In this document: piece by piece, positions 4,042 through 56,252 of the stretch
How positions within the stretch are numbered: position 1 is the stretch's first letter
Layout: each line of letters begins with the position of its first letter
From: Candidatus Levyibacteriota bacterium
GTDB taxonomy: Bacteria; Patescibacteriota; Microgenomatia; Levybacterales; UBA12049
Assembly: GCA_027459745.1 (NCBI GenBank)
Contig: DAIDHL010000004.1
Span: 15,240 to 79,239 of the forward strand
Reading direction: 5' to 3'
DNA length: 64,000 nucleotides
Notes under the pieces: generated by a model
What the model was told of the DNA's origin: nothing
Databases searched by the model: none
Seen by the model: only the letters and a program-made list of their open reading frames with translations
Position numbers and translations under genes: made by a program

Positions 4042-4097
4042 ATACTCATCGTAGCTACTATTAATTTTAAGATCAATGACCTAAATATAAATTAAAA

Positions 4098-5342
4098 CTA
4101 TGAAGGTAAAAATTGAGAGACTAACAATGCAATAGAGCTAATTGCTATCAAAGCAAAAGTAATAATAACTATAATATTAATTATTCTACCATTGCGATAT
4201 CCATTTAATAATTTCTTATCATTAGCAAGTATATATACAAAGACAAGTACGGGTAATAACAAAACTGCATTTATAGCTTGCGTGAAGAATAATATCTGTA
4301 GAAGTGGTAAAAATGGAGCTATAACTAATATTGCGCCAATAAACAAGCTAAAAGAGAACAATCCATAAAACTCTGGCGCTTCGGTAAACGAGAAATTAAG
4401 TCCTGACTCAAAACCAAATGCTTCAGTAATTACATATGACGTAGCAACCGGAACTAAGGCAGCGCCGAATAAAGATGCATTTAACAAACCAAAAGCAAAC
4501 AAAATTCCCGCAAACTGACCAGCTAAAGGCTGTAATGCAATAGCTGCATCTTTAGCATCACTTATGGGAATATTATGAGCGAATAGTGTTACAGCACAAG
4601 CCACAATAATAAAGAAAGAAATGAAATTAGTTATAAAAGAACCTAAAAAGACATCCGCTCTTTCCGGATTCAGATCCTCTTTAGTCAATTTTTTGTCTAC
4701 TACATAATCTTGAATAAAAAATTGACCCCAAGGTGTAATTGTTGTACCTATAACTGCAATCATTGTAATAAGATAATTTTTACTTAAACTAAAATGTGGT
4801 GTAACTAGACTTTCCACAGCAACTCCCCAGTGTGGATGAGACATAAAAGCAGAAATAATGTAAACTAAATAGAAAGCAGAAGCAACTAAAAATATTTTCT
4901 CTAATTTTTTAAAACTTCCTTTAGTAACCAGAAAGAAAACTAGCAGAACAGCAAACGGGATTGAAACGTATTTATTAATATTGAATACTTCCAATGCAGA
5001 AGCGATTCCGGCAAATTCCGCTGCAATTGTTCCAATATTAGCGATGAGTAAAACTACCATAATAAATGTAGTCCAACGAATTCCAAACTTTTCACGAATC
5101 AAAGAAGCTAAACCCTTACCTGTAGCCAATCCCATTCTTGCTCCTATTTCCTGAGTAACAGCCAAACTGAAAGTAGTTATAAATAAAACCCACAACAATG
5201 AAAGCCCAAAGCTAGCACCTGCAACAGAATAAGTCGCAATACCACCCGCATCATTGTCTACTGAACCAGAAATAATACCTGGTCCTAATATGGCTAAAAT
5301 AGGCAAAATTCTTCCAAATCTTGTTTTAAATAGGTTCTTCAT
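4098..5342 (-). CDS. Nramp (SLC11) family transporter with a non-canonical metal site, possibly an NRMT-like Mg2+ transporter
   Basis: Clear similarity to MntH in TM1-TM3 (LGPG...AGASFG..LLWV...G.ATGK.LA..IR). DPGN is replaced by DAGG (SVDNDAGGIATYS), and TM6 ATVMPH is replaced by TTITPW, so the Met and His are lost. I set the start at the second ATG (MKNLFK..., 5342), which follows GAGGAG. The ORF track starts it at 5363. Confidence 0.8.
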   Translation of the reverse strand: MKNLFKTRFGRILPILAILGPGIISGSVDNDAGGIATYSVAGASFGLSLLWVLFITTFSLAVTQEIGARMGLATGKGLASLIREKFGIRWTTFIMVVLLIANIGTIAAEFAGIASALEVFNINKYVSIPFAVLLVFFLVTKGSFKKLEKIFLVASAFYLVYIISAFMSHPHWGVAVESLVTPHFSLSKNYLITMIAVIGTTITPWGQFFIQDYVVDKKLTKEDLNPERADVFLGSFITNFISFFIIVACAVTLFAHNIPISDAKDAAIALQPLAGQFAGILFAFGLLNASLFGAALVPVATSYVITEAFGFESGLNFSFTEAPEFYGLFSFSLFIGAILVIAPFLPLLQILFFTQAINAVLLLPVLVFVYILANDKKLLNGYRNGRIINIIVIITFALIAISSIALLVSQFLPS

Positions 5343-6513
5343 ATTCTTCTCCTCTCTGTACATGTTCTAGAACTGTATCAACTGAAATAGCACCAATTAC
5401 TTTATCATTTTCATCTACCACAGGCAGTAGACGAAGATTATACTCGGAGAATGTTCTTAATATTTCTTTAAAAGGGGCATCTGAGGTAACAGATTGTGCA
5501 GAAATTGCCACATCTTTTAGACTTGAATCTGGTTCTAGATTAAATAAATTTCTTACTGCAATTATTCCTTTTAAAGTATCTTCATTATCCACAACAACTA
5601 CGACCTCAGGACGTCTACGCATTAAGCGTAAAAATTCTATGGTTTCTGCAACTGTCGTATCTTCTTTCTCACGATAAAAATTAACATCCATCAGACCTCC
5701 AGCAACATTATCAGGATATACAGATAACCGTCTGACGTTTTGAATCTTATCCTGTTCAAGATTTTGAAAAATCTCCTTGCTGGTAAAAGGATTTAATTCT
5801 TTAAGAATATCTACAATATCTGCCACTGACATTTTTTGGACAATCTTCTTTAATGAATCTTTTGGTAAAGACTCCAATATTGATTGTTGTGTCTCTGGAT
5901 CTGCTTCTCCCAATGCTGCTGCCGCCATTCGTGGATCAAGTAATTCGACCACACCCAATCTTTCTTTTGTTCCTGCATCTTCTAAAATGTCAGCAATTTC
6001 CGCTGGATGAAATGCATTTAAGCTATTCTGACTTAATTTCAATCTAACCTGTCCCATTTGATAATCAAAAGCCTCAATCAATGTCCAAGGAATAGAAATA
6101 GTGCGCAAATTAAAGACGACTCCCAATCCGAGTCGTCTTAATATTCCAGAAAATCCGATATCGATTCCCACAATTTTATATACACCATTTTTTTTAAGGA
6201 TTACATCATTTACCCGCACTAGACGACGACCAGTAACATCGATCACTTGTTTATCCAACAAATCCTCTGCTAAATAAAAATCTTTATCATTATATGGAGA
6301 TAAAGTAATATCTTCAGTTTCAATGAAAAATCTTTTCTCGGTAAATTTTACTTGGTCAGTAGGTAAAGTGAACTTCTTACCTTCTTTGCGAATTAAAATA
6401 GTGGAAACATTAGCAGTAGATAAATCTTGAACCACACCAAAATCAATGACTTTAGCATACTCTCGTTGTCCTACGTAGACTGGTTTGTTTAATAATTGGC
6501 TCAGATAAACCAT
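5326..6513 (-). CDS. MgtE-like cytoplasmic regulatory protein (PRC-barrel, MgtE_N, CBS pair) with no transmembrane domain
   Basis: MgtE_N signature LNAFHPAEIADILEDAG..ERLGVVELLDPRMAAAALGEADPETQQSILESLP...MSVADIVDILKEL. Two CBS motifs (VGGLMDVNFYRE..., PVVDENDKVIGAISVDTVLEHV). The N-terminal region is PRC-barrel-like (KPVYVGQREYAKVIDFGV...). AAGGAGG lies 5 nt before the ATG of MVYLSQ (6513). The track start at 6549 lies upstream of that SD. Confidence 0.75.
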   Translation of the reverse strand: MVYLSQLLNKPVYVGQREYAKVIDFGVVQDLSTANVSTILIRKEGKKFTLPTDQVKFTEKRFFIETEDITLSPYNDKDFYLAEDLLDKQVIDVTGRRLVRVNDVILKKNGVYKIVGIDIGFSGILRRLGLGVVFNLRTISIPWTLIEAFDYQMGQVRLKLSQNSLNAFHPAEIADILEDAGTKERLGVVELLDPRMAAAALGEADPETQQSILESLPKDSLKKIVQKMSVADIVDILKELNPFTSKEIFQNLEQDKIQNVRRLSVYPDNVAGGLMDVNFYREKEDTTVAETIEFLRLMRRRPEVVVVVDNEDTLKGIIAVRNLFNLEPDSSLKDVAISAQSVTSDAPFKEILRTFSEYNLRLLPVVDENDKVIGAISVDTVLEHVQRGEEYEEPI

Positions 6514-6653
6514 ATCGCCCTCCTTTCGGACCAGAGCCAAAATATGCATGAGACTTTTAAACCAAGAAAAAGCACCAGTTTCAGCAACCTTTTAGGTGAA
6601 CTTAAAATGCTCGCCTGCCAAAATCACTCATGTTTATTTTCAACTCTAGTTGA

Positions 6654-6683
6654 ATTATCCGCCTCGATTTGCAGGTTTGTCAA
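6654..6683 (-). promoter_or_regulatory. sigma70-like promoter for the sensor/Nramp/ATPase operon
   Basis: On the minus strand, TTGACA is followed by an 18-nt spacer and GATAAT, about 135 nt upstream of the 6513 start. Confidence 0.4.
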
Positions 6684-6699
6684 TAAGAAGAATAGATTT

Positions 6700-7767
6700 T
6701 TAAATAGCGGGTGTTATTATTTTACCTGTTGGTTGCTCAAAAACTTTGCCATTATCAACAATTTTTCGTCCGTGCAGATAGACAGACATTATTTTCCCTT
6801 TAATTTGCATACCTGCAAATGGTGTCCACCCGCATTTACTGACTATTTTGTCGTTACTTAAAACATATTTCTGAGAAGTGTCAATTTCCACATATGTATC
6901 CAACTGTTCAGGTATAGAAAAAATTCTTCTTGGATTTGTATTTGTAACAGTTATCAATGTTTCCAAACTTATTCTCTTCTCAGCCACAGCCGTCAATAAT
7001 AACGGCAATGATGTTTCAACGCCTGGCACTCCAAAAGGAGAATTTTCGGAATTTTCTTTTTCTTCAATAGTATGGGGTGCATGATCTGTAGCGACAATAT
7101 CAATAAGACCTTCTCGCAATCCCTCCCACAAAGCATCCTGATCCATTTGTGTTTTCAGGACAGGTTTCATAACTGCATAGGCGCCAATCCGTTTTATATC
7201 CTCATCTGTCAAAAATAGATTATTAGGTGTAACTTCGCATGTTATATTCATTCCACTTTTCTTTGCTTTAACTACAGACATTAATTCTTGTTTTGAAGTT
7301 AAATGTGCAACATGAACTTTTGTACGATATTTCCCTGCTAATTCTATCGCTCTGTCTAATGTCTCATCTTCTGCATGAACAATTAATGTTTTTCCGTTAG
7401 GAATATGAGCAAAAATCTTTTCTGCTTCTTCAGGCGTAACTTTTAAATTACCTGTTGTATGATTCATATACAGCTTGTAGCCAAACACCTGATTTTTAAC
7501 TTCTTCAAAAAAAGGCAGAGCCTCCATGGTAGCGGCAAAATGAAACCCTAAATCGTTATAGATACGATTTTCTGCAAGCTTAAATTTTTCTTTCAAGGCC
7601 AGAGGATTTGAAGTAGGGATTGGATTATTTGGCATATCCAGAACAGTCGTTACCCCACCTGAAATAGCCGCTCTGGTGCCAGTTGCCATATCCTCTTTCT
7701 GAGCAGCACCCGGCTCTCTTAAATGAGTATGGACATCAATTACACCTGGTATGGTAAGTAGTTTCAT
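6700..7767 (-). CDS. pyrC: dihydroorotase
   Basis: N-terminal GVIDVHTHLREPG metal-binding motif of cyclic amidohydrolases. Operon context with pyrD, pyrE and pyrF. Confidence 0.8.
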   Translation of the reverse strand: MKLLTIPGVIDVHTHLREPGAAQKEDMATGTRAAISGGVTTVLDMPNNPIPTSNPLALKEKFKLAENRIYNDLGFHFAATMEALPFFEEVKNQVFGYKLYMNHTTGNLKVTPEEAEKIFAHIPNGKTLIVHAEDETLDRAIELAGKYRTKVHVAHLTSKQELMSVVKAKKSGMNITCEVTPNNLFLTDEDIKRIGAYAVMKPVLKTQMDQDALWEGLREGLIDIVATDHAPHTIEEKENSENSPFGVPGVETSLPLLLTAVAEKRISLETLITVTNTNPRRIFSIPEQLDTYVEIDTSQKYVLSNDKIVSKCGWTPFAGMQIKGKIMSVYLHGRKIVDNGKVFEQPTGKIITPAI

Positions 7768-8831
7768 AGAGTCTTTTTAATTTCCTGCGCCAAGAAAGGA
7801 TCCCACATTGCACCGGTGGCCGACATCACACTATCTGCTCCCGCTTCTATATAATCAAAATAATCCTTAGGAGTCATTACACCCCCTATACCTTCAATAT
7901 TAAATTTAAATTTTTTTCGCTCACGAATTTTTTTAAGCCTGCTAACTGTATCAATACCTGCCCATTTAATTCCTGCCCCACAAACTCCAGACCTAGCTCT
8001 ACCCTTACCAGGCAGTGCTTGCTCACCCTTATCATCTACAATTGTTGCTTGCAAAGTATTAATCCCAGCAATTGCATTGGCATATTCATTAGCAATTTCT
8101 GAAATTTTCTCCAATTGTTTATCATCTGAATAATATCCAACTTTTAATGTCAAAGGTAAATTACCAATTACTGAACGAATACCTTTGGAAATTTTTTCTG
8201 TAACTTCCAAATTGTAACAAACCAAGCCCTCATTACCAATATTAGGACATGACAAATTAGTCTCAAGTACTTTAGCCCCAGTCTCAGCAGCCAATTTGGC
8301 AGCCAAAATATAATCATTAATAAATTCTTGTTGGGTTTGATTAGGTTTTACAGTACCCATGAAACTCACAACTAGAACTTGACCTTTACCAGCATAGCTT
8401 ATAGCCTTTTTCACATCCTCCTGCCATACTTCAACATTTTTAGATGGTACACCAAATGAATTAGTAATTGACAATGGCTGCGTATAGTTAATATCTGCTT
8501 GGAGCGGATTTTGTAGGACTTCTAATGAAAGATCACCTGATGGATGAATCGCCAAAACATTGGGGAAAGGATGACAAGGAAAGAAATTTGTTCTAACTGT
8601 TTTATAGACAACTAAATCAAAACCTTTCTCGAAAGCAGCTTTGACAAAATTACTATTCAAGACTGGCCCTGCGGGAATTCCAAAAGGCAAATAGACTGGC
8701 TGCCCTAAGTAAGTTTTACTAGGCTCTCCACTTTGCTGATAAACTTTTCCATCCGCAAATGCACCAAATGGTCCTTCGTCATAATTTTCTTCATACGACT
8801 TTTTCGGATCATAGAAAGGATTTTGTAGCAT
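7764..8831 (-). CDS. pyrD: dihydroorotate dehydrogenase, class 1-like (Cys active-site base), with an N-terminal extension of about 60 aa
   Basis: NLSCPN motif and a TIM-barrel flavoprotein pattern (GIGGV...). There is a 4-nt ATGA overlap with pyrC. Confidence 0.8.
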   Translation of the reverse strand: MLQNPFYDPKKSYEENYDEGPFGAFADGKVYQQSGEPSKTYLGQPVYLPFGIPAGPVLNSNFVKAAFEKGFDLVVYKTVRTNFFPCHPFPNVLAIHPSGDLSLEVLQNPLQADINYTQPLSITNSFGVPSKNVEVWQEDVKKAISYAGKGQVLVVSFMGTVKPNQTQQEFINDYILAAKLAAETGAKVLETNLSCPNIGNEGLVCYNLEVTEKISKGIRSVIGNLPLTLKVGYYSDDKQLEKISEIANEYANAIAGINTLQATIVDDKGEQALPGKGRARSGVCGAGIKWAGIDTVSRLKKIRERKKFKFNIEGIGGVMTPKDYFDYIEAGADSVMSATGAMWDPFLAQEIKKTL

Positions 8832-8835
8832 AAAA

Positions 8836-9558
8836 TTATTGTCTTAAATAAGTTACAACTTTTTTATATTTTTCTTCTGTTATCTGTTTACTTGAACGAA
8901 GATATTCCAGAATTGAATAAATATCCATTGCAGCATATGTTTTATAGCCCATATCTAGCATCTTTTGCACTCCTCCTTGACTCCTATCTACTAAAACGAC
9001 CAAAGCTACAACTTCATAACCAAGTTTTTTAGCTTCTTCAAGTGCTTCGACTTTAGAATTACCATGCGCAATCACATCATCAATAATTACTAATTTTTTA
9101 CCTTGAACTTTTTCTGCATCCGGCTTAGCCACTATTGCCCTCGTACTATCACCTTCAACTTTATCAAAAATATCTACAAAAGGAATATCGGTCAAGATTG
9201 AGTATTCTTCTGCAAATGCAATCGCAGTCTTAGGGATAGCAGTACAATAATCTACTGTAGTATCTATTTTTACTTGTGATAACACTTCACCTATTTTCCC
9301 TATCAAATTTGGGGGTAATTTGCGTAAGTTAATATAAATTTGTGAGAGTGCAGCATCTGGTCTTTCTTCATGAATCTTCAAAGCAAATTCCTCTTCATTA
9401 ACAGGAAAATCTATCGGACTGGTATCCCGTTCAATGGTATAAAAAGAAAACTTTCCTTCAGGGTCTTGTTTGCGACGACGGACCTTTGCGTATGTTTTGG
9501 TGGAAATAAATAAATCTACTAATTCTTTTTGTGATTGTGTTAGCTGTTTGATATCCAT
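8836..9558 (-). CDS. pyrE: orotate phosphoribosyltransferase
   Basis: PRTase PRPP-binding loop KKLVIIDDVIAHGNSKVEA. It lies between pyrF and pyrD. Confidence 0.75.
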   Translation of the reverse strand: MDIKQLTQSQKELVDLFISTKTYAKVRRRKQDPEGKFSFYTIERDTSPIDFPVNEEEFALKIHEERPDAALSQIYINLRKLPPNLIGKIGEVLSQVKIDTTVDYCTAIPKTAIAFAEEYSILTDIPFVDIFDKVEGDSTRAIVAKPDAEKVQGKKLVIIDDVIAHGNSKVEALEEAKKLGYEVVALVVLVDRSQGGVQKMLDMGYKTYAAMDIYSILEYLRSSKQITEEKYKKVVTYLRQ

Positions 9559-10404
9559 TTATAAATAAGATATTATTTGCTGATATAACTTTTGGGCTTC
9601 CTTCTTAGCTGCTTGTGCATAGTCTATATCATTTGAGGCAAAAAGTATACTCCTACCGGCATTGATGATCATACCCTGACTTTTACTGTCTTTACCAGCT
9701 GTCACTGTGGCTTGCAAGTCTCCTCCTTGTGCACCAATACCTGGAATAAGAAAGGGAATATCACCTACCAAAGCGCGCACTTTGGCTAATTCTTCTGGAT
9801 AAGTAGCTCCTACAACGACACCGCAATTGCCATAAGTATTCCATTTCTGACTAATGTTTAAGGCTACCTTTTGATAAAGAGGCATTTTTGTACCATTATC
9901 TTCGATAATTAAATTTTGAAATTCGGACGAACCTTTATTGGAAGTTTTTACTAACAAAATAATGCCTTTATCTTTCCTTTCCAGAAACGGCTGCACTGCT
10001 TCCTGTCCCAGATACGAATGAAGAGTAATGGCGTCGGCATTTAAAATATCAAAGGCTGCGGTAGCATAGCCTTGATTGGTATTGCCAATATCTCCACGTT
10101 TGGCGTCCAAAATAACTGGCATTGCTTCATAATTTTCATGAATGTACGCAATTGTCTTTTGTAAAACTGCAAAACCTTCAGAGCCATACATTTCATAAAA
10201 AGCACTATTGGGTTTGAAAGCACAGACATATTCTGCTGTTGCATCGATAATAGCCTTATTAAATTGGAAAATCTGCTCTGCTTTATTTTTATAATTTTTA
10301 CGGATAACTTCAGGCAACTTATCAATTTGAGGATCAAGTCCCACGCATAAAAACTTATTTTCATTCCAATGAGTCTTTAATTTCTCTGTAAAAATCAGTT
10401 CCAT
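9559..10404 (-). CDS. pyrF: orotidine-5'-phosphate decarboxylase (long type-2 form)
   Basis: LDAKRGDIGNT active-site motif. It is the first gene of the pyrFEDC cluster. Confidence 0.8.
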   Translation of the reverse strand: MELIFTEKLKTHWNENKFLCVGLDPQIDKLPEVIRKNYKNKAEQIFQFNKAIIDATAEYVCAFKPNSAFYEMYGSEGFAVLQKTIAYIHENYEAMPVILDAKRGDIGNTNQGYATAAFDILNADAITLHSYLGQEAVQPFLERKDKGIILLVKTSNKGSSEFQNLIIEDNGTKMPLYQKVALNISQKWNTYGNCGVVVGATYPEELAKVRALVGDIPFLIPGIGAQGGDLQATVTAGKDSKSQGMIINAGRSILFASNDIDYAQAAKKEAQKLYQQIISYL

Positions 10405-10473
10405 CCGTTATCAGAAATATAATTAATTGCGGACTAATTGTCAATTGATATTCCGGTAATATTAATTTAATTT

Positions 10474-10482
10474 TGCTACAAT
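10474..10482 (+). promoter_or_regulatory. extended -10 element TGCTACAAT for the LCP gene
   Basis: TGn plus TACAAT lies 21 nt upstream of ATG 10503 with no SD in between. Confidence 0.4.
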
Positions 10483-10502
10483 ATTTACCTAACAAATATA
10501 TT

Positions 10503-11537
10503 ATGCCTCAGACTGAAAAAAAATCACTTCCTTTGATAGTTAGAATTATCATCTGTGTACTAGCTGCGGTTATTTTCTATATTTTTGGCTACAGTTTATA
10601 TATTTTAACCCGTGTACAACAATTTGTGGCCACCAGTACTACCCAAAAAATCGCAGTTACACCTCCAGTCAACTTACCCAATCTATCAAATCAGACAAAC
10701 ATTTTACTCTTAGGCAGTGATAATGATCAAAAATTTACCGGCAATCCACTTACACAAACTATGATGATTGTGCACATTGATTATACTAAGAAAGAAATTG
10801 ATATGTTCTCAATACCTAGGGATTTATGGGTAAAAATGCCAAACCTTAACACCTACGGAAAGATTGATCAGGCTGCAGAATATAACGGCATACCCTCTGC
10901 AATTGCGGTCGTTGAACAAACTTTTGGTATCCCTATAAATCATTATGCCTGGGTGGGATTGTATGGATTTATCAAAAGTATTGACGCTATAGGTGGTGTT
11001 AATATCGACGCCGTACATCCAGTACTTGATAATGCCTACCCTACCGATATCGGCAGTAATAATCCTTATGGAGTTCAGAGATTAGATATTCAAGCAGGTA
11101 TGCAACACATGGACGGACAAGAAGCCTTGCAGTATGTTAGATCCCGTCATGAAGATTTAATTGGAGATTTTGGCCGTACTCAACGGCAAAGACAGCTTTT
11201 ATTAACTTTAAAACAAACCTTATTACAATCTAAATCCTCTCTTTTGGATGTCCCACAAATTTTTGACAGTCTCAAGGGACAAATAAAAACCGACATCGAT
11301 CCACTTATTGCCATGCAACTCGCAACATTTTACATCACCAATAAAAGCACTATACAACAAAAACAATACACACTTACTCCCGGAGAATATTCACAAGTCG
11401 GTAATTCTACCGATGGACAAAGTATAGTTATAGCTGATCCTAACACATCATCTCAATTAGTAGGTAAAATATTCGGAGCCAAGGCACAGGAAATTACTCT
11501 ACAAAGTCTGTTGAATGAGAAAGGTATACAACCATGA
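10503..11537 (+). CDS. LytR-CpsA-Psr (LCP) family cell-envelope phosphotransferase
   Basis: N-terminal TM, then LLLGSDNDQ...MMIVHID...SIPRDLWV...GGVNIDAVHPV...DGQEALQYVRSRH..GDFGRTQRQRQLL. The track ORF starts at TTG 10473 and includes the TGCTACAAT promoter. ATG 10503 is the more likely start. Confidence 0.85.
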   Translation: MPQTEKKSLPLIVRIIICVLAAVIFYIFGYSLYILTRVQQFVATSTTQKIAVTPPVNLPNLSNQTNILLLGSDNDQKFTGNPLTQTMMIVHIDYTKKEIDMFSIPRDLWVKMPNLNTYGKIDQAAEYNGIPSAIAVVEQTFGIPINHYAWVGLYGFIKSIDAIGGVNIDAVHPVLDNAYPTDIGSNNPYGVQRLDIQAGMQHMDGQEALQYVRSRHEDLIGDFGRTQRQRQLLLTLKQTLLQSKSSLLDVPQIFDSLKGQIKTDIDPLIAMQLATFYITNKSTIQQKQYTLTPGEYSQVGNSTDGQSIVIADPNTSSQLVGKIFGAKAQEITLQSLLNEKGIQP

Positions 11538-12538
11538 TAAAAAAACGTACATTAATATTATTAGCGATAGTTTTTTTATTAGTAGGATATTTCCAGGCAG
11601 CAAATCATAGTAAAAAAAATACAGTGCAGAATACAGTTCAATTCGCCAATACAGAAATAGAACCTAATGACAAAATTACTCTTTCTAATTTGGGAGATAT
11701 ATATGAATTGACTAGTAAAAATATCACTCAGATTACCACCAATACTAGCTTAATTGAACCAATCACGATGGATAAAAATATTGCGGCTGTCTATAAACAA
11801 AATAATTATTCTTCGCTAATCGAATATGACTCATCAGGCAAAATGATAAAAACATTGTTTGATGGAAATGCAAATAAAATCGATAATATGTTATGGGTTA
11901 GTGATCCTGCAATTGATTCCACAAAAACTAAAATAGCCTATGTTTCCGATCAAAACAGAATCAGCACTAATATACCAGATAACGCGTTGTTTATTTTAGA
12001 TCTAAATAAAAATAAAACAACTTTAGTGGCTAGTCCAGATCATTATTCAGGAGGCATTGCTCATCCGGTATGGGACCCCATCGACCAAACAATATTACTC
12101 TATGACTATTATCAATACACCTCTTCCACACTTGAACCTTATTCAACAATCATGGAATATGATTTTCAAACAGATAATTCTTTTCCTCTAACTACTGACA
12201 AACAAAATGTCTTACAGGAAGCATTGTCCCCAGACGGTAAAAAGATATTATACCTTCAGCGTAATAGTAACGGCCTGGATGTTTCTTTATATTATGCAGA
12301 TTTTTCTGCAGATAATGGAATATCAAATACAGTAAAACTTACTAGTGGTGACTATGCATATCCTGAATTTTCTAATACACTGGACTATATTTATTATTTA
12401 TCTGCTGATGCTAATCAAGGATATAACCTTTTCAAGGCAAAAATTGTGAATAATAAATTAACTGCAATTACACCGATTACAACAGGAGATAGTTTGCAGG
12501 GTAACTCCTCATATTGGATTGATGAAATTACGCAATAG
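11534..12538 (+). CDS. hypothetical secreted protein with TolB/PD40-like beta-propeller repeats
   Basis: Signal or TM N-terminus. Repeated ...KIAYVSDQN... and ...LSPDGKKILYLQRNSNG... blocks. ATGA overlap with the LCP gene. Confidence 0.5.
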   Translation: MIKKRTLILLAIVFLLVGYFQAANHSKKNTVQNTVQFANTEIEPNDKITLSNLGDIYELTSKNITQITTNTSLIEPITMDKNIAAVYKQNNYSSLIEYDSSGKMIKTLFDGNANKIDNMLWVSDPAIDSTKTKIAYVSDQNRISTNIPDNALFILDLNKNKTTLVASPDHYSGGIAHPVWDPIDQTILLYDYYQYTSSTLEPYSTIMEYDFQTDNSFPLTTDKQNVLQEALSPDGKKILYLQRNSNGLDVSLYYADFSADNGISNTVKLTSGDYAYPEFSNTLDYIYYLSADANQGYNLFKAKIVNNKLTAITPITTGDSLQGNSSYWIDEITQ

Positions 12539-12570
12539 AAAAGTTATTACAAAATGTGTAAGATATAAAA

Positions 12571-13353
12571 ATGTCTAAAAATAGTATACTTAACTTCCTA
12601 AGCGCAAAAATACTAAGAAAAGTTCCGGAAATCACTATCTTTTTTTGGATAATCAAATTACTTACTACTGCTATGGGTGAGTCTACATCTGATTTTTTAG
12701 TTCATCAAATTGATCCAGTTATAGCTGTACTGTTAGGAGCTGGTGTATTTACAATAGCAATAGTTTTACAGTTTTGGGTAAAAAAATATATTCCATTTTT
12801 TTATTGGTTTGCAATCACTATGGTAGCTGTGTTTGGAACAATGGTAGCAGATGTACTACATATAGGATTAGGCATTCCTTACTCTGTTTCTTCAACCCTG
12901 TTTTTTATTTCGTTACTTGTCATATTATATGCTTGGTATTACTGTGAAAAAACTTTATCAATTCATAGTATCAATACTCGCAGAAGAGAAATATTCTATT
13001 GGTTAACTGTTATGGCAACATTTGCTTTAGGTACAGCCACGGGAGATATGACTGCTACTACCTTACAATGGGGGTATTTAACCTCAGGTATGTTCTTTGG
13101 AATTTTATTTCTTCTACCTTTATTAGCAAATAAATACTTCCATATAAATGAGGTATTCACTTTCTGGTTTGCTTACATAATGACTCGTCCATTTGGAGCT
13201 TCATTTGCCGACTGGACAGGCCGTACTACCGATTTGGGTGGTATTGGCTGGGGAACAGGTAATGTAAGTATCGGGTTGGGAGTACTGATAATATTGTTGG
13301 TTATTTACTTAAGCTTTTCTCAAATAGATATAAAAAACAACTCTCAAAGCTAA
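12571..13353 (+). CDS. hypothetical polytopic membrane protein
   Basis: 260 aa with about 7 hydrophobic helices and no diagnostic motif. Confidence 0.45.
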   Translation: MSKNSILNFLSAKILRKVPEITIFFWIIKLLTTAMGESTSDFLVHQIDPVIAVLLGAGVFTIAIVLQFWVKKYIPFFYWFAITMVAVFGTMVADVLHIGLGIPYSVSSTLFFISLLVILYAWYYCEKTLSIHSINTRRREIFYWLTVMATFALGTATGDMTATTLQWGYLTSGMFFGILFLLPLLANKYFHINEVFTFWFAYIMTRPFGASFADWTGRTTDLGGIGWGTGNVSIGLGVLIILLVIYLSFSQIDIKNNSQS

Positions 13354-14804
13354 TTAATATAGTATCCCAGAAAATCACCTGTTCTTTTATCAAAATGATA
13401 ATGTGATTTTATATATTTATTCACAATTGTTTTTTCATTGATGTTGACTTCATCCAGTATCACAAACTTAACCTTTTTATTTTTTAAATCACTAATTATT
13501 TCTTTTTGATAACTAAGAGGAATATTTAAGTAATCATATTTAGTAGCGTTATCACGATTGCTCAAAAAGTAGACCATTGGTGAATAATAGTTAATATAAA
13601 TGTTTTCTCTATTGCCGGTTTTACTATCCACATAGTGGGCTAACAAACTTGTCAAACTATTTGAAGATTGATCAAGATATACTCCTACTCTGTTTTGAGA
13701 GTCAAAGCTATTATCATTTCTTAAAGGTGTTTCCCATTTATAATATCCACCCAAGTAAGCAGTGTAGAAACCCACTCCAATAAAAAGTATTATCGTAATA
13801 TATAAAATAAATCTCAAATAAATTCCATTAATATAATTACACAACAAAAGCATATTTAAACCAGAAAAGGCCAGCAAAGCCACAAAATGATCAAGATCAG
13901 TCGTTGGTCTTATACCGATCAGATAAAATGCAATAATAAACGCAGGTACAACCAAGTACTCTTTTTTTCTTTTATAAACCACTCCTACAGTAATTAAAGA
14001 AATAATTAGAGGACTAGTATAGAAAAATAACTTCCCTATCTTACTGATTAAAGATCCTTCAGATAAAAAAGGTGTATCTAATGTTTTTTCTACTAATATC
14101 TTTTGGATAACATTAACGTTCAGACTCTGCACAAAAGGAATAAAGGAGTTAGTGCTTGTTAAATATATGATAAATACCAACAATATCAGTAGAAACCCTA
14201 TGCTATATATTTTAAAATTCTCATACCAGTATTTCCTGTCAAGAAAAGTTATACTACCCAAAGTGATCAATGGTATAGCAATTCCAAAATTTTGCTTCGA
14301 CAAAAAAATCAATGTGCTGAATACTCCCGCCCAAAAATAATATTTCCTGTTTTTAAGTAATCCGTAAAGCACAAATAGTAATGTATATAGAGTAAAACAC
14401 AGTCCATACATAGTAGGCCATGGGAAATTAATATGCATAGGCCCCCATACCACAAAAAATGAAGAGCCTAGAATAAGCAATAATGTTCGTCCTTGCAGTA
14501 ACTTCCAGATCCTGTAAATTGCGTACAAAGAAAATACACTTATTAACAGAGCTACAATTCTGCCTACTAAGACGCTTTGTCCAAATAGTTTAAAAAATAA
14601 AGCTACACTTGCAAATGAAATCGGTGTATAGACCATATCGAAGTCACGATATGGCACTAAACCATTGGCGGTTTGCATGGCAGCATGCAAAATATATCCT
14701 TCGTCATAATAAATAATTCCATGCACATGAAACCATATGAGAAGGATGAAGGCAATAAAATAAAAAACTAACAAATTCCAATTTTTACTTATCCATATAT
14801 ACAT
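13350..14804 (-). CDS. GT-C fold membrane glycosyltransferase-like protein (ArnT/PMT-like)
   Basis: 484 aa with about 11 TM helices, a first loop containing a YYDEGY-type acidic motif, and a C-terminal soluble domain. Family assignment is tentative. Confidence 0.45.
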   Translation of the reverse strand: MYIWISKNWNLLVFYFIAFILLIWFHVHGIIYYDEGYILHAAMQTANGLVPYRDFDMVYTPISFASVALFFKLFGQSVLVGRIVALLISVFSLYAIYRIWKLLQGRTLLLILGSSFFVVWGPMHINFPWPTMYGLCFTLYTLLFVLYGLLKNRKYYFWAGVFSTLIFLSKQNFGIAIPLITLGSITFLDRKYWYENFKIYSIGFLLILLVFIIYLTSTNSFIPFVQSLNVNVIQKILVEKTLDTPFLSEGSLISKIGKLFFYTSPLIISLITVGVVYKRKKEYLVVPAFIIAFYLIGIRPTTDLDHFVALLAFSGLNMLLLCNYINGIYLRFILYITIILFIGVGFYTAYLGGYYKWETPLRNDNSFDSQNRVGVYLDQSSNSLTSLLAHYVDSKTGNRENIYINYYSPMVYFLSNRDNATKYDYLNIPLSYQKEIISDLKNKKVKFVILDEVNINEKTIVNKYIKSHYHFDKRTGDFLGYYIN

Positions 14805-51131: not shown

Positions 51132-51758
51132 TTACTTATCCGGGCACAGCTCTCCCAGCGGGCAATCAGCACACACATGTGGACGAGCCGGGCAATATTC
51201 CCGACCAAAATTTATAAGTAAATGTGAGAAATCCAACCAATCTGCTTTGGGGACAATTTTCAGCAAATCTTGCTCAATCTTTTCGGGCGTCTTTTGTTTG
51301 GTTAGGCCTAAACGCTGAGACAAACGCATGACGTGAGTATCCACCGCAATTCCCTCGGCTTTACCAAAAGCATTACTCATCACCACATTGGCTGTTTTTC
51401 TCGCCACTCCCGGCAAACTATCCAATTCTTCCATCGTCTCTGGCACTTTACCATGAAATTTCTCGACGATCATTTTACTGGCGGCCACAATATTTTTGGC
51501 TTTATTAAAATGAAAATTAACTTTTTTGAGATGTTTATCCAATTCTTCGGGTGTTAGTTTGGCAAAATCTTCAGCAGTTTTATACTTCTTAAATAAATTT
51601 GGAGTAACAGTATTGACAGTTTTATCCGTCGCCTGGGCAGACAAAATGGTGGCAATCAACAGCTGCAAGGGAGTTTTATAATACAGCGCAGTATGTGGTT
51701 TGGGATAAACTTTCCTTAATCTTTTAATTATTTCCTTGACCTTCTCTTCCCTAGTCAT
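51132..51758 (-). CDS. nth: endonuclease III (DNA glycosylase/AP lyase)
   Basis: HhH-GPD fold with a C-terminal 4Fe-4S loop CPARPHVCADCPLGELC (C-x6-C-x2-C-x5-C). Confidence 0.9.
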   Translation of the reverse strand: MTREEKVKEIIKRLRKVYPKPHTALYYKTPLQLLIATILSAQATDKTVNTVTPNLFKKYKTAEDFAKLTPEELDKHLKKVNFHFNKAKNIVAASKMIVEKFHGKVPETMEELDSLPGVARKTANVVMSNAFGKAEGIAVDTHVMRLSQRLGLTKQKTPEKIEQDLLKIVPKADWLDFSHLLINFGREYCPARPHVCADCPLGELCPDK

Positions 51759-51809
51759 AATATTAGCAATTTTAGCACAAGGGGGTGTTTGTTATAATAG
51801 ATTTAATTT

Positions 51810-52391
51810 ATGATACGAAAAGCTACCCCTGATGATTTAGAAAGTATCTATTCTTTATATAAAGCAAATTCTCTTGACATTACTAATTTAGTAGATCCTA
51901 CTTATGCAACTAAGATACAAAGAGATGGATTTCTATTAGATCTTGAGGAAAAATCTGACATACTTGAACGGATACAAACGAATACTATCTTCAATGTTTA
52001 TGAGTTAGAAGGGAATGTTGTTGGTTTTATAAATATCAACAAAGAAATATACTTTCCGGAAGATTCTGATAATATTATCTGGTTTGATAATGATTTAAAG
52101 AACAAGTATTACCATCGAGACAGCTCCATAACACTTCATGAAATACTCATTAGCCAAACTCATAAAGAACAAGGGATTGGTAAACAATTATTAGAAAATA
52201 GTTTACAAATATTGAAAGAAATGGATTATACAGATTTATTTTCGATAGTAGTATTTGCTCCACTAACAAATTGTGCTTCAGTACTTTTTCATGCAAAAAA
52301 TGGATTTGAGAGAGCTTGTGTTAGTATGCCAACTGATTTATTCGGATTAAAGAATTACCAAAGCGTCCTTTTTCATCTACAAATTAAATAA
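51810..52391 (+). CDS. GNAT-family N-acetyltransferase
   Basis: Motif A-like HKEQGIGKQLLE. 193 aa, and AT-rich on inspection. Confidence 0.6.
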   Translation: MIRKATPDDLESIYSLYKANSLDITNLVDPTYATKIQRDGFLLDLEEKSDILERIQTNTIFNVYELEGNVVGFININKEIYFPEDSDNIIWFDNDLKNKYYHRDSSITLHEILISQTHKEQGIGKQLLENSLQILKEMDYTDLFSIVVFAPLTNCASVLFHAKNGFERACVSMPTDLFGLKNYQSVLFHLQIK

Positions 52392-52457
52392 TATTTTAAA
52401 CCCAATCCACCTGGGTGGTGGCCAATCATCTTAAAGTTATACTAGACCATGTTCGAT

Positions 52458-53303
52458 TTAATTATCAAGGTAGAAGATATAGACGTATCCGAAAGTTGTT
52501 ATAGAATAACCTGCTCCCATAGTACCCCCGAATGTGGGAGTTCCTTCTTTCTTAATTAAAATACCTAAATTTGCTAATTCAGCTAATGGCCCTATAAGCT
52601 CTTTTTCTTTTAAATGCTCCTGATAAGATATATTGTGCCATAACTCCTTTTCAGGCTTATTTGTATATCCGTATTTCTTTTTTAGAATCAAACTATTTAC
52701 ATTATAATTTTGATAAATGTATTTACTTATGTAGTCTGAGATTATAACTCTGTTTCTAGTGATATCTTCGAGTCTTTTTCCTTCTATTCCAGTTCTATCA
52801 GTGTACTGTAATAATTCTTTTTGTATATCCTCCTCAACTTTTCCCAATAGTTCATTTTTTATAAAGGTTAATATATTGAGCCCTGCAAAAGAAATTTGAT
52901 TTGTAGTCCAAATCAGCTTTTCAACTTCAAACTTTTCAATCTCTTCTTTATTTTTATCGGTTAAGTTTAAAAGTATTTTCTGATAGGCTCGTCTTTTTTC
53001 ATTAGCTCTTTCTTTAATATATGCTTCCAATAAAAGAACAAAGCAGTCTTGAAACTCCTCATGCTCAAATAGCTTTTGGCTAAATTTCCCTAAATTATCT
53101 CTAACAAACTCTACCCATTCTAAAACACGCTGCTGCCGTAATTTCATCCCTCTTCCGAAGTATGCTTTAGATAGTTTATAAGCAATATTTATACCCGGAA
53201 TCGAAGTAGCAATAGCATCTACAACCTCATCTGCTGTAATAGAGCCTACCTCTTCAAGCAGTAGCTCATCACTCTTTGTTATTTTTGCAATTTTACGTTT
53301 CAT
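52458..53303 (-). CDS. hypothetical protein (281 aa), second gene of a coupled pair
   Basis: Long ORF with no recognisable motif. It starts 1 nt after the stop of the upstream ORF. Confidence 0.5.
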   Translation of the reverse strand: MKRKIAKITKSDELLLEEVGSITADEVVDAIATSIPGINIAYKLSKAYFGRGMKLRQQRVLEWVEFVRDNLGKFSQKLFEHEEFQDCFVLLLEAYIKERANEKRRAYQKILLNLTDKNKEEIEKFEVEKLIWTTNQISFAGLNILTFIKNELLGKVEEDIQKELLQYTDRTGIEGKRLEDITRNRVIISDYISKYIYQNYNVNSLILKKKYGYTNKPEKELWHNISYQEHLKEKELIGPLAELANLGILIKKEGTPTFGGTMGAGYSITTFGYVYIFYLDN

Positions 53304-53304
53304 G

Positions 53305-54168
53305 TTATTTTACATATGCATCCTCGGCAATAGTAACACCAATTTTTTTAATTCTAGGACCTTTTTCTTCAATTACTACGGGTACAATTCCCTTATAAAA
53401 TCTGGCAGCAAAAGAGAAAATCATTAAATCTCTAACAAATACAAAAATGTTGTGATATACAATTTCAGAAAATTCTTTTGCTGATTGTTGTTTAGATGTC
53501 TTGGGAACCGAAATTGAGAGTTTACCATTTTTATCATATTCACAAACTAGTGGTGTCATTCGGATATTTTTATAATGTTGAGTAGTAGTCCTTAGCCTAA
53601 TAATAGATTCTGAGCAAGGTTTAAAAAGCTCAACTATTTGAATGATATTTGCTATTTTTTCATTATCTTCACTTGGAGTATTATTCTTAATCGCTTTAAT
53701 TAATTTTTCGCCATTTTCGCCGTATGTATGCAATTTAATACCAAGTAAAGGCTCAAACATTTTCATCAATATGTCCAAGGTAGATTTAGCCTGACTCAAT
53801 ACTTCTTCAATAGTTCCTTCTAAAATATCAGAATGTTGGGCTATACGTTTACCATCTTTTTTTATTTTTTCTTTAAATTCTTCTACTAAATCTGTCTCTT
53901 CCTCTGCATATCTATCTACAGCATTTGCTAATTTACTAAGCTTTTTAAATATCTCGATTGATGTAAGAAATAGATATTCTTTCTGCTTCGCTGGAATATC
54001 TATGGCTTGTTGAGGTATTCCTAACAAATTCATTATAAATTGTTCTCCAATTTCTTGACCTTTTTTAGACGTAAGAAGAATTAAATTTGTTGAGTTAGGA
54101 GTTAAATTAAATCTCTTCTCTTTTGCTTCAGTCTTTTTGTTATCATCCATAATATTATCACACCTCAA
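53305..54168 (-). CDS. hypothetical protein (287 aa), first gene of a coupled pair
   Basis: Long ORF with no recognisable motif. It is preceded by a 344-nt non-coding region. Confidence 0.5.
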   Translation of the reverse strand: MRCDNIMDDNKKTEAKEKRFNLTPNSTNLILLTSKKGQEIGEQFIMNLLGIPQQAIDIPAKQKEYLFLTSIEIFKKLSKLANAVDRYAEEETDLVEEFKEKIKKDGKRIAQHSDILEGTIEEVLSQAKSTLDILMKMFEPLLGIKLHTYGENGEKLIKAIKNNTPSEDNEKIANIIQIVELFKPCSESIIRLRTTTQHYKNIRMTPLVCEYDKNGKLSISVPKTSKQQSAKEFSEIVYHNIFVFVRDLMIFSFAARFYKGIVPVVIEEKGPRIKKIGVTIAEDAYVK

Positions 54169-54481
54169 TGTATCTTTTTATAGCCAATGAACTCAATGAC
54201 ACGCCTCCCCTGTTCAAATATTTGCTATCCACACATAAAACAAAAAAAACTTCTTGCGAAGTTCTCGTGGGCGGGCATTTTATTGTCTGTCCAGGCTAAC
54301 TCGCCTGTATTTTGTTATGAGGAGTATAGCAAAAATAATATTACAATGCTAGAATTTGTGGCAAATATTATAGGAATAGTTTGTATCTAATATAAATTAG
54401 GTCTCAGAATTTATTTGATTTTTGGAATTTGGGGGTTGGGATTTATAGAGAATAAAATTTTTAATACAAACCTCATCCTAT

Positions 54482-54502
54482 CCTTCTCCTAAGAGGAGAA
54501 GG
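54482..54502 (-). terminator. stem-loop 10 nt after the rnj stop codon (9-bp stem, no clean U-tract)
   Basis: CCTTCTCCT-AAG-AGGAGAAGG. Confidence 0.3.
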
Positions 54503-54512
54503 GAGATTAAGA

Positions 54513-56252
54513 TTAGATCTCAATCACTATCGGCATGATGAGGGGGCGGCGGCGGAGTTGTTTAAATACCAACTTACCCGTAATATCAGATATAAGCTTG
54601 CGCATATGCACCCAATTATTTACCCTGCTCTTCTTTGCACTCAAATTATTGCGAATCTCCCTCTCCAAAGAACCTTTGATATCCTGCACATCAGTCTGCA
54701 ATAAACCTCTCGTCACCACTTCTGGTGGACTAACTAATTGTCCATCCTCAGCTGACACTTCCACCATCACAATCATAATACCCTCTTTGGCCAATTGCTC
54801 CCGATCACGCAGAATAAAATTTTCTACCTCTTCACCCGAATACTGATCCACATACACATGCTCAATCTGAATTCTCTTGCCCAGACGCATACTCTCCTGA
54901 TTCAATAACACTTCCTGACCATCCTCTATCAACAACACATTCTTGCGTTGATAACCAAACTTCTCAGCTAGACGTCTATAAGCCACCATTTGCTTATAAT
55001 TACCACTAATCGGAATCAAAAACTTCGGTCTGGTCAAAGACATCAGCAGCATACTATCGTCAGACGATCCATGACCGGATACGTGAAATTTGTCAGACAC
55101 TTGGGTATATAACACTCTAGCTCCACTCTTAGACAGCGTATCCACCAATTGATCCACCAACACTTCATTGCCCGGAATAGGATCAGAAGAAAAAATTATT
55201 ACATCATCAGGAGATAATTTGACGTCTTTGTGCTCGCCATTGGCAATTCTACTCATACCGGAATTTTCCTGACCCTGCGCACCAGCCACTAATAACAACA
55301 ATTGCTTGTCACTATAATTTTTCAGTTCATCCATCTCGATGATGGTATTCTGTCGCACCTGCAAATAACCAATCTGTCGTCCTATATCTGAGTTCTTAAT
55401 CAAAGAACGACCAATAAAACAAACTTTACGATTGTATTTTTCCGCTGCTTTAATCGCTTGATTCAAACGAGAAATATTCGAGGAATAAGTCGTAATAATA
55501 CATTTACCCTTACAATTCTCCACTTCCCGTTCAAAACTTTCAGCAATTGAGTCTTCCGAAGGAGTAAAGCCTTTACGTTCTGCACCCAAACAGTCAGCCA
55601 ACAAACACATAATTCCCTGATTGGCAGCATTCACAATACCGGCAAAATCAGTTTTCTTGCCATCAGCTGGCGTCAAATCAAATTTGTAATCAGCCGCATG
55701 ATAAAAATTGCCGACGGGAGTCTTGACAAAAATATGTGAACTATCAGGAATAGAATGAGTCACACGGATGAAGGAAACGGTAAAAGGACCCAAATTTATT
55801 TCCCGATTATCAAAAGGCACGGTTTCGACTTTACCAGGTAGTTCAAACTCTTTTAATTTGGCATTGGCAAAAGCAGCGGTTAAGGGAGAAGCATACATGG
55901 GGAAATTATAACCAGCTGATTGCAACTGAGGTAGAACAAATGGCAATGCCCCGATATGATCCTCATGACCATGTGAGAATACCATCCCTACGATCTTTTT
56001 ATTCTTATTATTCTTCAACAAATAACGTACATCTGGCAACAATAGATCCACACCCAACATCGTCTCGTCTGCAAAGCCCATACCGCAATCTACAATCAGA
56101 ATCTGATCCTTATATTCATAGAGATACATATTGCGCGTGACATCACCCGGCCCACCTAAGGGTAGCAGGGAAAGTATATCGTTATTTTTTTTGAAAAACT
56201 TCTTTTGTCCTTCTGGAGCAAATTGAGGTTGCTTCGTTAAATTTTCATCCAT
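54513..56252 (-). CDS. rnj: ribonuclease J (metallo-beta-lactamase/beta-CASP)
   Basis: HxHxDH motif (FSHGHEDHIGALPFV), then beta-CASP and a C-terminal domain. 579 aa. Confidence 0.92.
   Translation of the reverse strand: MDENLTKQPQFAPEGQKKFFKKNNDILSLLPLGGPGDVTRNMYLYEYKDQILIVDCGMGFADETMLGVDLLLPDVRYLLKNNKNKKIVGMVFSHGHEDHIGALPFVLPQLQSAGYNFPMYASPLTAAFANAKLKEFELPGKVETVPFDNREINLGPFTVSFIRVTHSIPDSSHIFVKTPVGNFYHAADYKFDLTPADGKKTDFAGIVNAANQGIMCLLADCLGAERKGFTPSEDSIAESFEREVENCKGKCIITTYSSNISRLNQAIKAAEKYNRKVCFIGRSLIKNSDIGRQIGYLQVRQNTIIEMDELKNYSDKQLLLLVAGAQGQENSGMSRIANGEHKDVKLSPDDVIIFSSDPIPGNEVLVDQLVDTLSKSGARVLYTQVSDKFHVSGHGSSDDSMLLMSLTRPKFLIPISGNYKQMVAYRRLAEKFGYQRKNVLLIEDGQEVLLNQESMRLGKRIQIEHVYVDQYSGEEVENFILRDREQLAKEGIMIVMVEVSAEDGQLVSPPEVVTRGLLQTDVQDIKGSLEREIRNNLSAKKSRVNNWVHMRKLISDITGKLVFKQLRRRPLIMPIVIEI

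Follow-up and report, generated by a model that had tools for sequence, protein, structure and literature searches.

What are the two closely spaced genes that separate the RNase J gene rnj from the endonuclease III gene nth in a Levyibacteriota contig, how did they come to lie there, and what might they do? The genes stand at positions 51810–54512 of a 64,000-nt stretch of contig DAIDHL010000004.1, which we call the window; coordinates given without a locus label are counted from its first letter. An earlier note, written from the letters of this DNA, had described an AT-rich island of three genes, in which a GNAT acetyltransferase gene is convergent with two tightly coupled genes, and had proposed an accessory cassette of defence or toxin type. 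We refer to the two coupled open reading frames (ORFs) as ORF-A and ORF-B. The insert is a real, horizontally acquired cassette of defence-island type, and ORF-A and ORF-B are members of undescribed protein families.

Foreign DNA in the rnj–nth operon

A scan for RNase J proteins, with one genome per species, yielded two relatives of the locus, L007 and L006. L007, a Levyibacteriota metagenome-assembled genome, is the closest relative found: over ~17 kb it is collinear with the window through twelve flanking genes, whose products are 78–99% identical (83% for nth and 84% for rnj). In this genome only 5 nt separate the stop codon of rnj from the start codon of nth (9732–9742 region), and GNAT, ORF-B and ORF-A are all absent; the three genes and the leader upstream of ORF-A are therefore an insertion. 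This comparison shows that positions 51759–54512 are foreign DNA inserted into the ancestral rnj–nth operon of a Levybacteria-like bacterium of the Candidate Phyla Radiation (CPR). L006, from a more distant member of the Levybacteria, carries an unrelated 790-aa gene (9662–12034) after rnj and lacks nth there, so the site downstream of rnj seems to be variable. A PDB sequence search with the 790-aa product gave no match. The layout of the locus in the window is as follows.

51132–51758, minus strand: nth, endonuclease III (Pfam HhH-GPD, 1.3e-27); conserved flank, outside the insert
51759–54512, no strand: inserted segment of ~2.75 kb, GC 0.31, defined by L007 synteny and composition
51810–52391, plus strand: gene for a sequence-divergent GNAT N-acetyltransferase, 193 aa (Acetyltransf_1, 1.4e-7), convergent with ORF-B
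52407–52421, no strand: GC-rich hairpin between the convergent GNAT gene and ORF-B, a terminator-like site and likely a bidirectional terminator
52458–53303, minus strand: ORF-B, 281 aa, from the ORF map, with its ATG at 53303
53305–54150, minus strand: ORF-A, 281 aa, with an ATG start and the stop codon TAA at 53305–53307
54151–54512, minus strand: leader, the 362-nt intergenic region upstream of ORF-A
54513–56252, minus strand: rnj, RNase J (Pfam RNase_J_b_CASP, 1.6e-42; RNase_J_C, 8.4e-19); conserved flank, outside the insert

This order of GNAT, ORF-B and ORF-A between nth and rnj is the one first read from the ORF map, the identities of the two flanks are supported by Pfam (HhH-GPD and RNase_J_b_CASP), and a single base does separate the ORF-A stop codon from the ORF-B ATG. 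The length of 287 aa first given for ORF-A is that of the mechanical ORF 53305–54168, which opens with TTG. The ATG at 54150 is almost certainly the real start, giving 281 aa, because a Shine–Dalgarno-like GAGGTG precedes it and all homologues begin there. The non-coding stretch upstream of ORF-A is consequently 362 nt (54151–54512); it is long, as had been noted, and exceeds the 344 nt given before.

The base composition of the insert, formerly judged by eye, sets it apart from its surroundings. The guanine-plus-cytosine (GC) content of 51810–54512 is 0.312 against a window mean of 0.372, which is 2.7 standard deviations below the mean of same-size windows across the stretch (standard deviation 0.022); it is the lowest value in the window at that size, and 0.5% of same-size windows are as low. 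GC at third codon positions (GC3) is 0.19 in ORF-A, 0.20 in GNAT and 0.26 in ORF-B, compared with 0.41 in nth and 0.40 in rnj, and the values for ORF-A and GNAT are the lowest of any gene in the window. Genes of the ORF-A and ORF-B families are also AT-richer than their host contigs in most loci. In L019 an ORF-B homologue (157–1035) has a GC content of 0.32 at the end of a contig segment with an overall GC of 0.495, a striking mismatch in composition, as would be expected from a recent move into another lineage. One other part of the window, 11.0–14.8 kb, is equally AT-rich (GC about 0.31); the genes at 11000–14800 were read by eye as coding for LCP-like, beta-propeller-like secreted, polytopic membrane and large glycosyltransferase-like membrane proteins. 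Since this AT-rich region encodes envelope and membrane proteins, low GC by itself is not diagnostic. Taken with the L007 synteny and the varied contexts of the homologues, the deviant composition bears out the proposal of a horizontally acquired accessory insert.

Codon-level comparison gives a median ratio of nonsynonymous to synonymous substitution rates (dN/dS) of ~0.07 for ORF-A and ~0.09 for ORF-B, with dS saturated, and both are real genes under strong purifying selection. A very improbable alternative is that the two have normal housekeeping or metabolic roles specific to a Microgenomates lineage, and that their AT-richness comes from amino-acid composition. The very high protein conservation and low dN/dS would suit such genes, and the envelope proteins at 11.0–14.8 kb are normal proteins from equally AT-rich DNA. 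Yet the genes are absent at the syntenic site of the closest relative, their contexts vary and their distribution is patchy; GC3 is depressed and not just GC at first and second codon positions; and no metabolic family is matched, while the neighbours of the homologues are mostly defence and mobile-element genes.

The event that brought the insert left no marks. The window lacks tRNA genes, neither direct or inverted repeats nor att sites were found around the insert, and none of the window ORFs matches the recombinases encoded in L001, L003 and L018. A phage or plasmid origin was considered and rejected; no relatives were found in IMG/VR or PLSDB. In the window nth is preceded by 51 nt (51759–51809), a space that it shares divergently with GNAT; with nth split from the rnj operon and only this space upstream of it, its expression signals must be new.

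Neighbours of the homologues

Read locus by locus, homologues of ORF-A and ORF-B recur next to recognised defence genes. In L011, L005 and L013 the ORF-A homologue directly follows a type IIG restriction–modification (R–M) enzyme (PADLOC, 1.6e-107), which it overlaps by 8 nt in L011, and this enzyme adjoins an HKD and Snf2 helicase gene and a DUF3800 gene. The ORF-A homologue of L014 and L015 is found downstream of an EcoRI-type methylase gene and a T5orf172 gene, between GmrSD (type IV restriction) and a Ppl/AAA_21-like (Ppl/Lamassu-like) ATPase with a trypsin-like protease. It comes after a 1172-aa HEAT-repeat protein in L008 and L009, and in L001 it adjoins a large serine recombinase in an insert beside UPF0102-rplS-pyrG. 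The ORF-B homologue of L021 begins 12 nt after a SIR2_2 gene (Pfam, 8.4e-8; PADLOC SIR2, 4e-6), that of the P0064 locus is upstream of a PLDc_2 gene, and those of L016 and L017 adjoin a ParB-methyltransferase gene and a type I R–M system. By this context ORF-A and ORF-B are shown to belong to the conflict or anti-phage gene pool of the Microgenomates, as carried in defence islands and serine-recombinase elements. The part of the earlier note that proposed a defence or toxin-type function therefore stands as far as the neighbours are concerned, which are bona fide defence or mobile-element genes; on the other side, no PADLOC model matches ORF-A or ORF-B. That the two are new defence genes is plausible but unproven.

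The genes directly downstream of the ORF-A homologues vary (L013 2717–3370; L005 11325–11654; L009 8856–9473; L011 8847–9560). By eye they contain effector-like features: HEPN-like motifs (FRHGIAHN and IRNKLAHE), a nuclease-like motif (PD...ELK) and a pair of hydrophobic helices at the N terminus; sequence searches against Pfam and PDB gave these readings no support. In L005 the PLD-SNF2 helicase and Eco57I/TaqI_C methyltransferase genes (2400–9500), which are intact in L011, are split into many short ORFs; either the system has decayed or the assembly contains frameshift errors.

ORF-B in turn has a downstream partner in several loci, immediately following it at 1 nt in L016 and L017.

L016 7845–8663; L017 2829–3647; L003 7003–7806: protein C, ~270 aa (270 aa in L016 and L017), no family match, downstream partner of ORF-B

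Protein C is spaced from ORF-B by 1 nt or overlaps it by 8 nt, and has no PADLOC match. It contains an invariant KSKRN[YF]ATH block, of which RN[YF]ATH stands at a relative position similar to that of the Rx4H motif of ORF-A described below.

A second kind of context is mobile. In L003, with protein C, and in L018, without it, the ORF-B homologue lies between a TraG/DUF87 ATPase gene and an HTH (helix-turn-helix) gene with a large serine recombinase, and Replic_Relax, RadC and DUF2958 genes are near; both loci are evidently integrative mobile elements. The serine recombinase, TraG/DUF87, Replic_Relax, RadC, DUF2958 and XRE HTH genes mark a family of CPR elements (L001 4657–8864; L018 104–7140; L003 204–10057). 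Such an integrative element stands beside UPF0102-rplS-pyrG in two contigs, and ORF-A or ORF-B homologues are its cargo.

These elements raise the question of whether ORF-A and ORF-B could form a module of the CPR integrative elements, either toxin–antitoxin-like, for addiction or maintenance, or one for exclusion or regulation. It would work for the element and not for host immunity, and its copy in the window would have been stranded once the remainder of the element was lost. ORF-B keeps a fixed position in L003 and L018, from the TraG/DUF87 ATPase to the HTH gene and serine recombinase; in L001 the neighbour of ORF-A is a related recombinase; small XRE-type HTH genes are found repeatedly near these loci; the modelled C terminus of ORF-B appears to be of DNA-binding type; and the window copy, which has neither recombinase nor repeats, is consistent with a remnant. 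We nevertheless consider this reading improbable. Both proteins are ~280 aa, unlike the usual small antitoxin and toxin, and they are not obligately paired; the obligate co-occurrence that characterizes type II and type IV toxin–antitoxin systems is not seen for ORF-A and ORF-B. Around many copies, moreover, the fetched flanks are of R–M, GmrSD or SIR2 type and contain no genes of the element, and the "stranded" copies are still under strong purifying selection.

The ORF-A and ORF-B families and their pairing

Neither ORF-A nor ORF-B has a significant match in Pfam, NCBIfam, PADLOC or PHROGs, and profiles of ORF-A, ORF-B, the broad ORF-B family and protein C found no match among PDB sequences. 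The ORF-A family comprises 41 database clusters, all unnamed and 62–79% identical. Two blocks are invariant, HTYGxNG and R187-TTTQ-H192-Y (an Rx4H motif), and across 21 family sequences R187, T188, Q191, H192, Y193 and N195 do not vary. By our own estimate some Rx4H is expected by chance in about one in five proteins of the size of ORF-A. The AlphaFold2 model of ORF-A, with a mean predicted local distance difference test score (pLDDT) of 62.7, shows long helices and, after them, a small beta region.

ORF-B has 56 close clusters, and an exhaustive profile search extends the family to at least 324 clusters at 50% identity (E ≤ 1e-3). Its members occur in a long form of ~280 aa and a short form of 200–230 aa. 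ORF-B itself has a conserved all-helical N-terminal domain, a variable middle and a winged-helix-like C-terminal end. In the AlphaFold2 model of ORF-B (mean pLDDT 73, and >90 for residues ~140–250) the C terminus has a helix–helix–beta-hairpin–helix topology, formed by helices 219–237 and 240–245, strands 249–252 and 265–268, and helix 270–280. Because of this modelled topology and the pattern L..LG.l...(wing/loop)..Y.lT.fG, which is kept family-wide, the C terminus looks like a winged helix. Sub-threshold winged helix-turn-helix matches point to DUF2513/YjcQ, DUF4364 and Orc/Cdc6 chains. For the family as a whole, Abi_alpha is the Pfam family matched by the most ORF-B relatives, eight of 150 at E ≤ 1 with a best value of 5.9e-4, all below the Pfam threshold. 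A second search, with the 150-sequence ORF-B alignment, recovered for the most part the close relatives already known and added no annotation. Among the relatives, P0108 is fused to an Mrr_cat nuclease domain and one other matches the SLOG domain. P0158 (348 aa) is a short-form ORF-B with an extra beta-rich C-terminal domain of ~150 aa, and P0128 (273 aa) joins the N-terminal ORF-B domain to thymidylate kinase; the latter may be a chimeric contig or gene call.

Do the two genes work together? ORF-A and ORF-B adjoin in the same order, with a spacer of 1–3 nt, in three contigs: the window, L004, whose contig breaks off within ORF-A and whose ORF-B is 90% identical, and L020, with identities of 73% for ORF-A and 69% for ORF-B. 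ORF-B proteins that are ~70% identical have differing neighbours (ORF-A, protein C or SIR2), and partner exchange is therefore frequent. An origin of ORF-A and ORF-B as paralogues was ruled out by BLASTP and hhalign.

The reading that we tentatively prefer, at somewhat under even confidence, is that of a sensor or adaptor, ORF-B, and an effector, ORF-A, which would mount an abortive-infection-type response. ORF-B would bind nucleic acid, combining an N-terminal helical domain distantly like Abi_alpha with the C-terminal winged helix, and from one genome to another it would work with interchangeable toxic effectors, namely a SIR2-type NADase encoded upstream, an Mrr-type nuclease fused to it, a PLD nuclease encoded downstream, the 270-aa protein C or ORF-A. 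In the window the effector would be ORF-A, an enzyme-like protein whose invariant Rx4H hints at a HEPN-type RNase. Upon infection or invasion by a mobile element, ORF-A and ORF-B would arrest or kill the cell.

A number of results weigh against this reading. As regards defence in general, GNAT, ORF-A and ORF-B have no match at E ≤ 1 in PADLOC-DB v2, PADLOC found nothing recurrent among 150 ORF-B relatives, and no relatives were found in IMG/VR viral contigs or PLSDB plasmids; sequence conservation as strong as that of ORF-A and ORF-B is, moreover, unusual for fast-evolving defence genes. Foldseek gave no significant PDB match for either protein and none in BFVD for ORF-B. The window's own ORF-B does not match Abi_alpha at E ≤ 1, and Abi_alpha is therefore a lead and not a membership. 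On the side of ORF-A, the HEPN idea rests on a six-residue motif, the model falls below a pLDDT of 50 at residues 178–194, where the Rx4H site lies, no HEPN family of Pfam matches and Foldseek finds no HEPN structure. Homology of ORF-A to protein C, which was also considered, is unsupported (hhalign probability <1%). Finally, ORF-A and ORF-B are separate in at least 13 other loci, ORF-A occurring without ORF-B in L005, L008, L009 and L011–L015 and ORF-B without ORF-A in L003, L016–L019, L021 and the P0064 locus, and in these genomes genes commonly overlap unrelated neighbours or stand 1–8 nt from them.

The last of these points bear on how closely the two genes are tied. An obligately coupled pair, as the tight spacing had implied, is contradicted by an adjacency found in only three contigs, with the genes otherwise apart and beside other partners; tight spacing being common in a compact genome, as with the 5 nt between rnj and nth in L007, the 1-nt spacing is weak evidence of functional coupling. 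The main rival reading, somewhat less probable than the preferred one, is that ORF-A and ORF-B are two independent single-gene Abi-like or defence genes packed into a miniature island, with incidental co-transcription. Each lacks the other in most loci, and a hidden divergent ORF-B downstream of ORF-A elsewhere was ruled out by hmmsearch with four profiles; in L018 ORF-B stands alone between divergent genes; close spacing or overlap (1–8 nt) with unrelated neighbours is the rule; and Abi-alpha, the sole family that ORF-B weakly resembles, acts as a single gene (PMC6356687). Against independence, ORF-A–ORF-B is the commonest same-strand neighbour pairing for either family (three contigs), and the pairing has been kept in the same order and with a 1–3 nt spacer across ~30% protein divergence and saturated dS.

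A broader form of the sensor–effector reading would make the ORF-B family the fixed sensor or adaptor in a modular immune system, hitherto undescribed, with swappable effectors (SIR2 NADase, Mrr and PLD nucleases, protein C and ORF-A) and ORF-A a new, unusually conserved HEPN-like effector family; we regard this as a doubtful, though conceivable, extension. CPR bacteria, or Patescibacteria, have tiny genomes and are thought to hold few recognised defence systems, and their phage immunity is poorly understood. If the extension is true, they carry a defence system family of their own that current defence catalogues have missed. ORF-A and ORF-B are in any case concrete, clonable candidates for new defence genes, and the partner-swapping of ORF-B with NADase and nuclease effectors is a directly testable architecture. 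Should they not be defensive, they still serve as markers of CPR serine-recombinase/TraG integrative elements.

The third gene of the island stands apart from the other two. GNAT matches Acetyltransf_1 of Pfam with 32.2 bits against a cut-off of 20.7 and has an acetyl-CoA loop, QGIGKQ, at residues ~121–126 (Q/RxxGxG/A pattern); matches in NCBIfam and PDB are weak, with no specific subfamily above its cut-off. It is absent beside ORF-A or ORF-B homologues from all other loci, and the DNA similarity between the window and L004 ends exactly at the ORF-B stop codon. GNAT was accordingly rejected as a part of the module, and the three-gene unit suggested by the earlier note falls away, GNAT not being a conserved partner. 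It would be unrelated cargo, brought by the same or by a second insertion event.

The leader upstream of ORF-A contains the following features.

54482–54502, minus strand: perfect 9-bp hairpin just after the rnj stop codon
54396–54367 and 54364–54335, minus strand: two promoter-like sites from a promoter scan, in a number not above chance
54292–54307, minus strand: 5-bp hairpin
54236–54264, minus strand: GAACTTC-GCAA-GAAGTT stem followed by a T8 run, ~85 nt before the ORF-A start

The leader folds better than shuffled sequence (z = −2.74), and the stem and T8 run lie ~100 nt downstream of the promoter-like hexamers (54236–54400). It has no Rfam match and no counterpart at other homologue loci. 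Positions 54236–54400 might encode a short RNA or a transcription attenuator.

Comparison with known systems

As a small, horizontally acquired defence-island cassette the insert is of a familiar kind; neither of its two protein families has been described, and the immunity of CPR bacteria has received little study. The nearest named relative of ORF-B to consider is Abi-alpha (PF14337 Abi_alpha/DUF4393), which is of similar size (272 aa compared with 281 aa). Its studied member, EF2833 of Enterococcus faecalis V583 prophage 6, is a 272-aa protein that confers abortive infection as a single gene by a mechanism that is unknown (PMC6356687), and its phenotype, premature lysis on infection, was defined experimentally (PMC6356687). 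Like ORF-B, Abi-alpha is all-helical, has no known catalytic motif, can stand alone, and is carried on prophages, mobile elements or phage-resistance islands. It differs in being known from Firmicutes prophages, whereas ORF-B is found in CPR metagenomes and its relatives were not found in viral contigs or BFVD. ORF-B also has an additional module at its C terminus, winged-helix-like in form, and its gene is often tightly linked to that of a partner.

For ORF-A the comparison is with HEPN RNase effectors, which have the motif Rx4-6H and occur in abortive-infection (Abi), toxin–antitoxin and R–M-linked systems (AbiV, AbiJ, AbiD/F and HepT). Many HEPN families are genomically linked to R–M systems or defence islands. 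ORF-A resembles them in its invariant R-x4-H-Y, which lies inside its most conserved segment and is a lead at the level of the motif, in being largely helical, and in its own links to R–M systems and defence islands. It departs from them in having beta-strands between its motif and its last helix, in a model that cannot be relied on at the motif itself.

Lamassu, CBASS, Thoeris and retrons are built from a constant core with swappable effectors, and closely related ORF-B proteins (~70% identical) likewise pair with SIR2, PLD, an Mrr fusion, protein C or ORF-A. The core proteins of these systems are absent here, however, with no match by PADLOC, and ORF-B also occurs alone, contrary to what a core-plus-effector design predicts.

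A further comparison is with the type IV toxin–antitoxin system AbiE, formed by the antitoxin AbiEi, which has a winged helix-turn-helix, and the nucleotidyltransferase AbiEii. The putative winged helix of ORF-B is C-terminal and not N-terminal, the two genes of the window are not obligately linked, ORF-A has no nucleotidyltransferase (DUF1814) match, and the AbiE models of PADLOC find no match. What ORF-A and ORF-B share with AbiE is a two-gene operon of mid-sized proteins, one with a winged helix (putative in ORF-B), that lies on mobile DNA and, in their case, would play a comparable abortive-infection-like role.

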